A stretch of DNA of 64,000 nucleotides from a virus. Shown in pieces: positions 58,731-59,743 of this stretch. The stretch's first letter is position 1; the number at the start of each line of letters is the position of its first letter. Position numbers and translations under genes: made by a program. Location: the UHGV virus genome UHGV-0142425; one strand, written 5' to 3'. The notes beneath the pieces were generated by a model. It saw only the letters and a program-made list of their open reading frames with translations. It did no database searches and was not told the DNA's origin.

Positions 58731-58803
58731 GTAAGGGTACTTCGTAGGGATTCGAACCCTCTGCCAAGCTCGGCGATCTCCGACGTCGCAAAATACCCTT
58801 ACC
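58731..58803. other. tRNA-like palindromic element (GGTAAGGGTA ... TACCCTTACC closing stem with internal GGGATTCGAACCC T-loop-like motif)
   Basis: 10-bp perfect terminal inverted repeat; does not fold as a canonical tRNA. Confidence 0.4.
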
Positions 58804-58811
58804 TGTTGTGT

Positions 58812-58887
58812 TGGTGCCGGTTAACGGACTTGAACCGCTGGCCATTCGCTTACAAAGCGACTGCTCTACCAACTGAGCTAAACCGGC
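58812..58887 (-). tRNA. tRNA-Thr (anticodon UGU)
   Basis: 76 nt; acceptor GCCGGTT/AACCGGC, D-arm GCTCAGTTGGTAGAGC, loop UUUGUAA, T-arm GGTTCAAGTCC, CCA. Confidence 0.85.
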
Positions 58888-58891
58888 AATT

Positions 58892-58978
58892 TGGTGGGGA
58901 GTGATGGAGTCGAACCATCCGAGTCGCAATGACAGTAGATTTACAGTCTACCCCGCTACCCCTACGGACTAACTCCCC
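58892..58978 (-). tRNA. tRNA-Tyr-like class II tRNA (anticodon GUA)
   Basis: 87 nt; acceptor GGGGAGT/ACTCCCC, loop CUGUAAA, long variable arm, T-arm GATGGTTCGACTCCATC, CCA; D-arm atypical. Confidence 0.7.
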
Positions 58979-58983
58979 TAAAT

Positions 58984-59060
58984 TGGCGATGGTGGGTGGA
59001 TTCGAACCACCGACCGACAGCTTAGAAGGCTGCTGCTCTATCCTACTGAGCTACACCATC
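58984..59060 (-). tRNA. tRNA-Arg (anticodon UCU)
   Basis: 77 nt; acceptor GATGGTG/CACCATC, D-arm GCTCAGTAGGATAGAGC, loop CUUCUAA, T-arm GGTTCGAATCC, CCA. Confidence 0.85.
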
Positions 59061-59270
59061 ACTTGCCGGGTACGTCTCCGGCGAGGGCTTCCACCTCCGT
59101 ATGCTTTTCGGCGCGCCGCGCCCTGGCTGCAATTCGGTAACAGGGGATGCATAACCCTGGCTTCCAGCGTGATTAGCGCCTTCAGCATGACGGGATATAC
59201 CCGTTACAAGAAATTCTCCCAGGATGCCATTAAGCAATGGCTGTTACGCTGAATGAAAAAGGACGTAACA

Positions 59271-59337
59271 GGTAAGGGCACTGACCAAAAGATGGCCCCT
59301 TCTCGCTCATCTGGTTAATCGAACCAGCGCCCTTACC
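59271..59337. other. second tRNA-like palindromic element (GGTAAGGGC ... GCCCTTACC with internal TTAATCGAACC)
   Basis: Same terminal 8-9-bp inverted repeat as the element at 58731. Confidence 0.4.
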
Positions 59338-59726
59338 TTGTTATGCCTCCCCGTTCCCTAATACACAGACGGGGACACTCTGCGGTCGATTTTTTGACGG
59401 GGGACGACTCATACCCCGTGGCGTCTGGCTTCTTAGGCCGCTACCATCATCAGATCATCGTTTGCATTTACTTTAATGGTCAGTTTCTAAACCGCCGCAA
59501 AGTCGCTAACCATGACGAAAACCCTGAAAAAAACGCCCACCCGAAGATGGGCAAACTGGAAGCTCGTAACGCACTTCGGTGTTACCACTTAGGCGCATGG
59601 TCAACCTGGCAACTCGGTGGTTTGTCTGGGAGGACTAGGCCCAGCCATGCTTACCGCCGCGCCTGTCGCGGCTAACAGCTAAATCGCTCTATAAATCACG
59701 ATTCATTGAAGCGATATTACACTAAT

Positions 59727-59743
59727 AAATTTATTAGAGCAAT
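59727..59743. promoter_or_regulatory. C1 operator, perfect 17-bp consensus (AAATTTATTAGAGCAAT)
   Basis: Exact reverse complement of ATTGCTCTAATAAATTT; overlaps the dmt stop; positioned to control the leftward tRNA/tciA/ban transcript. Confidence 0.75.

Follow-up and report, generated by a model that had tools for sequence, protein, structure and literature searches.

The ban operon of P1-like (Punavirus) phages opens with a long leader, and in UHGV virus genome UHGV-0142425, analysed here as a 64,000-nucleotide stretch (the window), this leader carries transfer RNA (tRNA) genes, a family of long-stemmed hairpins and a module resembling transfer-messenger RNA (tmRNA). The source phage was placed by megablast of positions 58600-59800, which returned P1, P7, SJ46, RCS47, D6 and relatives at 89-94% identity. 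In P1 (NC_005856 annotation) the operon is ordered dmt, Obanab (former Op72ab) overlapping the promoter P1ban, a leader with a 'dicF-like region', trnA (Asn), trnT (Thr), tciA-B-C, trnI (CAU) and ban, and two small open reading frames (ORFs), upl and plp, are annotated on the opposite strand. The window shares this gene order (dmt, operator, leader, tRNAs, tciABC, tRNA(CAU), ban), its operator geometry is identical and its flanks are 92-96% identical in nucleotide sequence, whereas its tRNA block reads Arg-Tyr-Thr in place of Asn-Thr. The locus and its operator are thus already known, as the P1 ban operon with the bivalent operator Op72/Oban. The P1 record marks only the 'dicF-like region', the tRNAs and plus-strand upl and plp in this part, and neither the hairpins nor the tag module that are the subject of this report.

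A perfect 17-bp C1 operator had been placed at 59727-59743 by an earlier sequence-only reading, and the site holds. Op72a/Oban-a (ATTGCTCTAATAAATTT, minus strand) has no mismatch to the 17-nt consensus, overlaps the -35 element of P1ban and the 3' end of dmt (59734-61998), and overlaps a partner, Op72b/Oban-b (59716-59732, plus strand, two mismatches), making the operator bivalent. The arrangement and position of the pair equal those of Op72ab/P1ban in alignments to annotated P1 and P7, and C1-like sites with at most three mismatches to ATTGCTCTAATAAATTT number 15 in the window against 0.29 expected. C1 binding and repression at this operator are established for P1 according to the record annotation and are predicted for the window phage. 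The promoter (59714-59742, minus strand; -35 TTGCTC at 59742-59737, -10 TAATAT at 59719-59714) was transferred from the P1 annotation by alignment; a generic promoter scan did not flag it. The whole array would be transcribed on the minus strand from C1-repressed P1ban, in the order: a first leader unit running to a terminator; the tag module followed by hairpin E2; three tRNAs; hairpin E1; two hairpins, each with a small closed domain; an STnc100-like domain; and tciABC, tRNA-Ile2 and ban.

The three tRNAs had been described as lying between two palindromes that share the ends GGTAAGGG and CCCTTACC. These palindromes are real. Exactly two matches to GGTAAGGG-N(30-60)-CCCTTACC are found in the 64 kb, at 58730-58803 (one nucleotide earlier than first given, 58731) and at 59271-59337, with none expected from 100 shuffles, and the folding check proposed for the two elements came out better than shuffles for both (z = -3.2 and -4.4, minus strand). 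The first is the inner part of hairpin E1 (58724-58810, minus strand), which is prolonged by outer pairing of CACAAC (58810-58805) with GUUGUG (58729-58724) past a bulged A at 58804; its apex, called type A, contains AGGG-UUCGAAU-CCCU. The second is hairpin E2 (59271-59337, minus strand), directly after the tmRNA-like module, with the stem GGUAAGGGCGCUGG/UCAGUGCCCUUACC, one G.A mismatch near the top and outer pairing of UAACA with UGUUA. Two more members, also on the minus strand, are E3 (58223-58306; inner part 58232-58297, GGUAAGAGCAUUC/GAAUGCUCUUUCC; outer stem CACGUAAC/GUUGCGGUG) and E4 (58484-58587; a 23-bp stem, CACUACAAC-GUUGAGAACACUGG / CCAGUGUUCUCAAC-AUUGUGGUG). The window thus holds four members of the family, all confined to this locus. 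E3 and E4 are paralogs: they have 25 nt of the apex and also the 3' flank in common, and their stems differ at four positions, all of them compensated. The same 25 nt, read on the plus strand, form a direct repeat (58256-58280 and 58539-58563, GTAGATTGGGATATGA(A/C)CC(A/C)GTTAC) that resembles a ribosome-binding site with an ATG after it and lies where upl begins in P1.

Across relatives the stem follows 5'-(C)ACAAC-(A)-GKURAG...CUYAMC-(G/A)UUGYG-3'. It is about 20-23 bp long and conserved in sequence, usually with a bulged A and sometimes with a U.U mismatch. Pairing in the outer stem extends past the 8-mers (CACAAC/GUUGUG, and with covariation CACAGC/GCUGUG and CGUAAC/GUUGCG), bringing the total to 21-24 pairs. 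The apices, 35-65 nt, are unrelated between relatives, and the hairpins stand where the noncoding modules of a polycistronic array meet. They are packed closely against the tRNAs, 4-8 nt from tRNA 3' ends (8 nt after tRNA-Thr in the window, 4 nt after tRNA-Asn in the Klebsiella plasmid-prophage pJN2-26), and at one locus the 3' flank of the hairpin overlaps a tRNA 5' end. The site of E1, 3' of tRNA-Thr, shows the constant and the variable parts clearly. Its flanks, CACAAC-A-GGTAAGRG... and ...CYCTTACC-GTTGTGATGAAGTGCAGC, are conserved across relatives, while the interior is the 74-nt type A in the window, P1, SJ46 and D6 and an unrelated 55 nt in P7 and Ro157c2YLVW; the proposed comparison with P1 and P7 thus gave conserved flanks with, in P7, an unrelated interior. 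Phage 813R1 carries the 74- and 55-nt types in tandem, and pJN2-26 has an 81-nt version. In P1-like phages the interiors at this site measure 74, 55, 76, 63, 68, 79 or 81 nt, sometimes two in tandem, and at least 10 interior types were found in the set made up of at least 120 loci from an IMG/VR pattern scan and the loci from relatives.

The evidence for pairing at the RNA level lies in how the stems vary. In 40 distinct stems, 16 of the 20 pairs change on both sides, with 115 such cells against 38 +/- 5 in shuffles (for this count each apex was replaced by GAAA), and 89.9% of stem cells are paired, compared with 34-54% when the partner is slid. On the operon strand G.U pairs outnumber A.C pairs by 47 to 18; the commonest 55-nt variant, for example, has G.U on the operon strand and A.C on the opposite strand. 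Three points weigh against reading the elements at the RNA level. The stem set was gathered by requiring complementarity, so that the paired fraction and part of the covariation are circular; pairing is better on the opposite strand at one junction position of E4-type hairpins (C.A) and in the E2 variants of D6 and SJ46; and the hairpins of Shigella phage DS8, described below, lie on the strand opposite to the flanking tail genes, although the island that holds them has a promoter-like site of its own. E1-E4 are nevertheless taken to be RNA hairpins of the P1ban transcript because of the E3/E4 paralogs, the replacements at a single site across relatives and the strand asymmetry of the G.U pairs, and the elements are with good confidence RNA-level structured elements of one family. 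No description of this hairpin family was found in the literature searched.

The sequence-only reading had credited each of the two palindromes with a T-loop-like motif, held that neither folds as a canonical tRNA, and offered decayed tRNA genes as one possible origin. In agreement with the second point, the four real tRNAs of the window are all that ARAGORN and the Rfam tRNA model (RF00005, with either the gathering score or E<=10 as cut-off) report, and E1 and E2 match no other Rfam family above threshold either. The first needs correcting for E2: the T-arm of the type A apex is perfect and invariant in 83 of 84 copies (the type F apex has a T-arm as well), whereas the look-alike in E2 of the window, UUCGAUUAA, is a minority variant, present at 9 loci against 82 with UGUGAUUAA. 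If the elements were remnants of former members of the tRNA cluster, their T-arm-like motifs (AGGGUUCGAAUCCCU in E1, and that of E2), their length of about 70 nt and their place beside the tRNAs would be accounted for. However, local alignments to the four tRNAs of the window fall within about 1.5 standard deviations of shuffles and all below the best shuffle, the interiors at the same site in relatives are unrelated, most apices of the family have no tRNA feature, and what would be the acceptor stem, at 14-23 bp, is common to all members. Descent from tRNA genes is most improbable.

The tRNAs themselves, on the minus strand and called by both ARAGORN and Rfam, are tRNA-Thr(UGU) at 58812-58887, tRNA-Tyr(GUA) at 58892-58978, which is not in P1, and tRNA-Arg(UCU) at 58984-59060; between them and E2 lies a spacer (59061-59270, minus strand) with small local hairpins that is conserved across P1-like phages. 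The set differs from that of P1, as the sequence-only reading had stated: the P1 record has Asn, Thr and Ile2. tRNA-Arg(UCU) consists of the acceptor, D and T arms of P1 tRNA-Asn with another anticodon arm (compared with 2791-2866 of locus L001), and tRNA-Thr has the same body as P1 trnT, differing only in the anticodon stem and variable region (compared with 2713-2788 of L001). Anticodon arms on constant tRNA scaffolds thus look diversified, which may be linked to evasion of anticodon nucleases. tRNA-Tyr(GUA) is about 88% identical to tRNA-Tyr of T4-like phages of Enterobacter, Klebsiella and Cronobacter (e.g., CC31 and PG7), a similarity that suggests transfer between phage families.

Among the roughly 130 loci in the matches listed, the array is built of slots: an E2-type hairpin, tRNA-Asn or -Arg, an optional tRNA-Tyr, tRNA-Thr, one or two hairpins of various types, and then either E3 or tRNA-Ser(UGA) with a longer hairpin. 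The last alternative occurs in D6, P7, locus L042 and AG3, where tRNA-Ser(UGA) fills the slot that E3 has in the window and the longer family hairpin after it measures about 100 nt and has the stem GTTAAGAGTATTTGG/CCAAGTGCTCTTACC. Across the loci the apices and the segments between hairpins both assort independently, and which tRNAs are present (Asn or Arg, optionally Tyr, then Thr) varies independently of the hairpin type. The palindromes had also been proposed as recombination borders of a tRNA cassette. This did not hold up: besides the independence of tRNA content and hairpin type, the breakpoints between the window and P1 fall within the tRNA block (58919/58982) and include the swap of an anticodon arm on one tRNA body.

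The hairpins and modules extend well beyond the P1-like phages. Stems with their flanks are found in the late leader of HK620, in DS8, in the N4-like phage Pollock and in pJN2-26-like plasmid-prophages, which have almost no other homology to the window, and the modules recur in HK620, N4-like, DS8-like, Ackermannviridae and pJN2-26-like genomes. In the P22-like phage HK620 (1195-1630 of locus L137) the unusually long late leader between pR'/qut and tQ holds a family hairpin together with the tag module and an STnc100-like domain, all of which would be transcribed from the late promoter pR'. In Shigella phage DS8 (1040-1870 of locus L131, minus strand) an 840-bp noncoding island between tail genes contains the tag module, two family hairpins and a closed domain that ends in a T-arm-like hairpin and then CCACCA, and the island has its own promoter-like TTGACA-17-TAGATT and a terminator-like hairpin. 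The hairpin locus of Pollock adjoins a tRNA cluster. Downstream of a family hairpin there is usually GUGAAUGC, then a small hairpin with which a closed multi-hairpin domain begins. When the strict hairpin pattern was searched in one genome per bacterial species, only two contigs were returned, one P1-like and from Escherichia, the other a probable chance hit in a metagenome-assembled genome; with the strict pattern nearly absent from this set, the family looks phage-borne.

A spread of this kind could also be explained at the DNA level, with the palindromes acting mainly as recombination linkers, through short homologies or as hairpin-forming sites, and any RNA structure being incidental. Short conserved palindromes at the borders of shuffled modules, common across phage genomes, are a feature of the PeSL (promoter-stem-loop) cassettes of T4-type phages and of integron attC hairpins, and the family shares it: identical arms and flanks bound every exchangeable unit and are common to unrelated phage families, and, as said, apices and inter-hairpin segments assort independently. 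With CACAAC/GTTGTG as outer boxes the family comes close to the attC core RYYYAAC/GTTRRRY, but each box misses it by one position, so that the match to the core motifs is not exact. Exchange driven by homology needs no inverted symmetry, and the compensatory changes and the excess of G.U on the transcribed strand point to selection on RNA pairing. Unlike PeSL and attC, moreover, the family joins noncoding modules, its unit has no promoter, there is evidence for selection at the RNA level, and no dedicated recombinase was identified (the genomes were not screened for one). No integron integrase is annotated near the P1 locus or the other loci examined, in which no systematic integrase search was made. 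Linkers with merely incidental RNA structure are rather unlikely.

The reading that we favour, and hold tentatively, is that the stems, as members of one family, would be double-stranded RNA processing or insulator elements and at the same time recombination joints. They would separate the modules of the precursor and define module ends in the manner of the processing stalks of rRNA operons, with RNase III as the candidate enzyme by stem size. The RNase III stems of rRNA operon stalks and of T7 early RNA are double helices about two turns long that contain a bulge or mismatch and stand between the functional RNAs of one precursor. The family resembles them in the length of the double-stranded RNA, the bulge or mismatch, the position between modules and the tolerance of sequence change if pairing is kept; its 21-24 pairs, with covariation and the G.U bias of the operon strand, fall within the size expected of an RNase III substrate (a stem of about 20 bp or more). 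It differs from them in that its stems enclose a short variable apex and not a mature RNA, in that several positions are conserved in sequence, and in that cleavage is predicted only. The arms and flanks (~15-40 nt) would in addition act as recombination joints at which modules and apices are swapped, a role suggested by finding the same sequences again at all junctions and in phages that are otherwise unrelated; it would account for the combinatorial build of the arrays and for their presence in several phage families. What the comparisons show is that the hairpins form one family, that the stems covary, that G.U pairs favour one strand and that the arrays are combinatorial and widespread among phage families; the cleavage, the enzyme and any role of the apex we infer.

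Some observations count against processing by RNase III: the enzyme has no strict consensus against which the stems could be tested, and processing alone explains neither the diversity of the apices nor the stem positions that are conserved in sequence and not merely paired. Of the origins first proposed for the palindromes, tRNA-like processing signals came closest, since processing is the nearest reading; the signal, on the other hand, would be a long conserved double-stranded stem and not a tRNA shape. A further pairing is available around the tRNA block, in that the 3' arm and flank of E2 (59267-59278) and the 5' flank and arm of E1 (58796-58807) are perfectly complementary over 12 nt. This alternative helix would loop out the whole block like an rRNA operon stalk; the local hairpins should form first. 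Processing has a precedent in PasA, a related prophage small RNA from the same regions as STnc100/PasD, which is reportedly cut from a longer transcript (bioRxiv 10.64898/2026.05.13.724894).

The hypervariable apices in a constant scaffold are what would be expected if the hairpins were scaffolded small RNAs or decoys, the stem being the scaffold and the apex a payload (an antisense seed, or an imitation of a tRNA or T-arm that would sequester a host factor or an anti-phage nuclease) diversified in an arms race. The perfect T-arms of the type A and type F apices fit this idea, as do the neighbouring tRNAs, which likewise combine a constant body with swapped anticodon arms, and the location of the array beside tRNAs in an early, repressor-controlled operon. 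P1 and P7 encode a precedent in C4 antisense RNA, which is structured, is cut from a longer transcript and has a constant scaffold with variable recognition loops. The elements resemble it as P1-encoded structured RNAs with a constant scaffold and variable loops, but they have no match to the Rfam C4 model, nor to that of YrlA, and no cognate target in the window. Antisense targets of the apices within the window were sought and rejected: complementarity is at chance level (matches of 11-12 nt, about one expected by chance). No motif is common to the apex types, and the T-loop look-alike of E2 is not conserved. Payload-bearing small RNAs are therefore an unlikely account of the family.

Nus-factor antitermination, of the boxA/nut kind, would carry RNA polymerase through about 2.7 kb of untranslated RNA to ban, and a long untranslated operon with an internal terminator would gain from it. 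The boxA element (GCUCUUUA or GCUCUUA) is bound by NusB-NusE as single-stranded RNA. The commonest 3' arm of the family, UGCUCUUACC, contains the 8-mer GCUCUUAC of lambda nutR boxA, E3 has UGCUCUUU as in rrn boxA, and a small hairpin, GCGCAGGCUGAUGCGC, often follows at a spacing like that of boxB. Yet the boxA-like strand is sequestered in a stable stem, and many members read otherwise (ACCCUUACC, GUUCUCAAC) with compensating changes, so that it is the pairing and not the boxA sequence that is kept. The resemblance was, besides, noticed post hoc, and antitermination by these stems is very improbable.

The leader between operator and tRNAs, about which the sequence-only reading had said that it holds no convincing ORF, contains a second unusual element. 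The absence of a convincing protein gene stands, in that leader ORFs gave no Pfam matches and the P1 lipoprotein gene plp is broken in the window; the leader is not featureless, as it has a terminator and a tmRNA-like module. The terminator (GUUUGCCCAUCUUCGGGUGGGC followed by U7; 59527-59556, minus strand) is intrinsic, ends the first leader unit about 150 nt downstream of P1ban and lies inside the 'dicF-like region' of P1. DicF homology of this first unit was rejected, as it is without Rfam support (no DicF match at E<=10 in 57000-59800 or in 59250-59760).

The tmRNA-like module (59346-59523, minus strand) starts immediately downstream of the terminator. Its 5' domain (GUUUUCG...GCGACUUUGCGG) is followed by the tag frame, then by a hairpin whose loop holds the stop codon, by an H-type pseudoknot and by a last hairpin at 59375-59347. 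The tag frame (59433-59465, minus strand) reads GCA AAC GAU GAU CUG AUG AUG GUA GCG GCC UAA and would encode ANDDLMMVAA*, compared with ANDENYALAA in the Escherichia coli SsrA tag. The frame lacks a start codon, is preceded eight codons upstream by an in-frame UAG and has the 5' context UAAAU|GCA. The pseudoknot (59385-59419, minus strand) has a stem 1 of 59418-59414 (CGGGG) with 59402-59398 (CCCCG), a possible added A-U pair at 59419/59397, and a stem 2 of 59408-59405 (GUCG) with 59388-59385 (CGAC). The module is about 75-80% conserved in DS8, Pollock and others, and a 131-nt query found it in 318 phage records from at least six phage groups, nearly all without annotation of it. In P1-like phages, HK620 and DS8 an E2 hairpin follows it directly.

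The tag frame was compared among P1-like phages, pJN2-26-like plasmid-prophages, DS8-like and N4-like phages, Ackermannviridae, Jedunavirus, Klebsiella siphophages and HK620. It occurs in 15 nucleotide versions that would give 10 peptides (ANDDLMMVAA, ANDDLMMAAA, ANDNLMMVAA, ANDDVVLMAA, ANDSEVLMAA, ANEEVYLAVA, ANEEMYLAVA, ANDNQYLAVA, ANDNTFLAVA and ANDTEFLAVA), and across the 318 records its length never departs from 10 codons before a UAA stop. At codons 1 (GCA/GCU), 2 (AAC/AAU) and 10 (GCC/GCG/GCU) all variation is synonymous. Two 6-nt indels between the P1 and DS8 groups compensate each other so that the tag length is kept, and the other two frames are interrupted by stops at varying places. 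In all 14 diverse phages compared, stem 1 of the pseudoknot starts 14-15 nt downstream of the stop codon; it takes the Watson-Crick forms CGGGG/CCCCG, CGAGG/CCUCG, CAAGG/CCUUG, UGAGG/CCUCA and UCAGG/CCUGA, and with a G.U pair CGGGG/CCCUG. Pseudoknots with Watson-Crick pairs throughout are found in 13 of the 14 sequences, against 3.9% of shuffles. The stop-codon hairpin, the helices upstream of the tag and two longer-range helices are conserved, with covariation not above that of shuffles.

These features are those of tmRNA (SsrA, standard or two-piece; RF00023, RF04321): a start-less frame of 10 codons that begins GCA AAC GA, with an Ala resume codon, and specifies AN(D/E)...(A/V)A, with a hydrophobic C-terminus ending in Ala, before UAA, a stop codon in a hairpin loop, a pseudoknot directly after it, and a 5' context, UAAAU|GCA, that fits the RF04321 consensus. 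What distinguishes the module from tmRNA is its place in phage noncoding arrays and the tRNA-like domain (G3.U70 acceptor, canonical T arm, ACCA), which was not found. ARAGORN in tmRNA mode called no such domain in 136 sequences; no T arm, ACCA end or acceptor stem was found in the self-contained Pollock unit, nor by eye in the Pollock or DS8 units; and the hairpin stems start G-G-U without a G.U at position 3, so that there is no G3.U70. The Rfam tmRNA models (RF00023, RF04321, RF01849 and RF01850) give 25.7 bits for the window and 20.9-32.7 bits for other phages, below the gathering score of 47, and these weak matches, seen in every phage group examined, arise because of the tag frame. A canonical or permuted tmRNA was rejected on these grounds: none called by ARAGORN, Rfam scores below the gathering score, and no acceptor stem or T arm seen. 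In phage PBM-3 (771-850 of locus L139) a gene annotated 'tRNA-Cys' lies about 90 nt after the tag stop; it has normal D and T arms, a broken anticodon arm and no CCA, is not called by ARAGORN, and its acceptor reads U3.G70 and not G3.U70.

The leader holds a tag module overlooked by the standard finders; what it does is a matter for more caution. It is possible, if doubtful, that P1 and several hundred enterobacterial phages encode a tmRNA-derived tag-template RNA without a recognisable tRNA-like domain, under selection at the level of the peptide, and with it divert or make use of the pathway of ribosome rescue and tagging. The template might do so by pairing with an acceptor piece that the host or a separate gene provides, or as one part of a multi-piece RNA that is produced by processing and takes its missing helices from the conserved hairpin stems. 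A 2014 survey of tmRNA that included RefSeq viral genomes found phage tmRNA only in mycobacteriophages, Bacillus phage G and DS6A (PMC4131195). No description of the tmRNA-like module or of the hairpins in P1, HK620, Ackermannviridae or N4-like phages was found in the literature searched.

The downstream end of the leader contains an STnc100/PasD-like, cloverleaf-like domain (58109-58229, minus strand) directly upstream of tciA. STnc100/PasD are prophage small RNAs found near TerB-family genes and tRNAs (bioRxiv 10.64898/2026.05.13.724894). The domain of the window is likewise a closed multi-hairpin structure that starts GGUGAAU and stands upstream of a TerB-family gene among phage tRNAs; it differs from STnc100/PasD in scoring below the gathering threshold of RF02076 (37.4 bits against 47, over model positions 31-147 of 206), in being preceded by a family hairpin and in lying within the ban leader. 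A similar match occurs in phage AG3. Through this match before tciA the ban leader of P1 is linked to the Q-S region of lambdoid prophages, which is rich in small RNAs. Positions 58109-58140 of this domain are 100% identical to 32-nt spacers, annotated as part of CRISPR arrays, in at least two E. coli chromosomes (NZ_CP028764 and NZ_LR025101, among the matches listed). Matches of E. coli chromosomes to the E3/STnc100-like region were considered as prophage homologs and rejected, the two listed being these spacers.

The rest of the operon (55650-58075, minus strand) consists of tciA (57650-58075, a TerB homolog in the P1 annotation), tciB, tciC, tRNA(CAU), which is P1 trnI or tRNA-Ile2 (57300-57375), and ban, the helicase gene of the operon (55650-57020), all on the minus strand. 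The remaining frames in the leader give little sign of coding. PHROG matches of leader ORFs are P1-family ORF calls or artefacts antisense to tRNAs, and the lengths of the hairpins vary modulo 3, which argues against coding. P1 plp is split in the window into two plus-strand frames (58460-58585 and 58491-58904) that run antisense through tRNA-Thr, and it is probably not a real gene. A 44-codon frame (58592-58726, minus strand) starts in the GUUGUG(A/G)UGAAG flank after E1 and begins MKCSSLKQPEDKHL... in most relatives; in its first 18 codons pJN2-26 has two synonymous and two non-synonymous changes. This frame is possibly coding.

P1 is among the phages studied most thoroughly, yet some 1.6 kb of its ban leader carries only tRNAs, a 'dicF-like region' and two doubtful ORFs in the annotation; this stretch is shown here to consist of structured RNA modules in an ordered array, with a conserved hairpin at their joints. 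Temperate and virulent phages from at least six groups exchange these modules, which points to a shared pool of noncoding cassettes beside phage tRNAs and touches on how precursors of phage tRNAs and small RNAs are cut and how noncoding modules are exchanged between phages. The diversification of anticodon arms and hairpin tops on constant scaffolds may bear on anticodon-nuclease defences, and an SsrA-like tag template that standard tmRNA finders miss bears on whether phages interfere with or reuse trans-translation. If the tag-template reading is true, the array would be a horizontally mobile 'translation-manipulation' island of tRNAs, a tag RNA and tRNA-like small RNAs.

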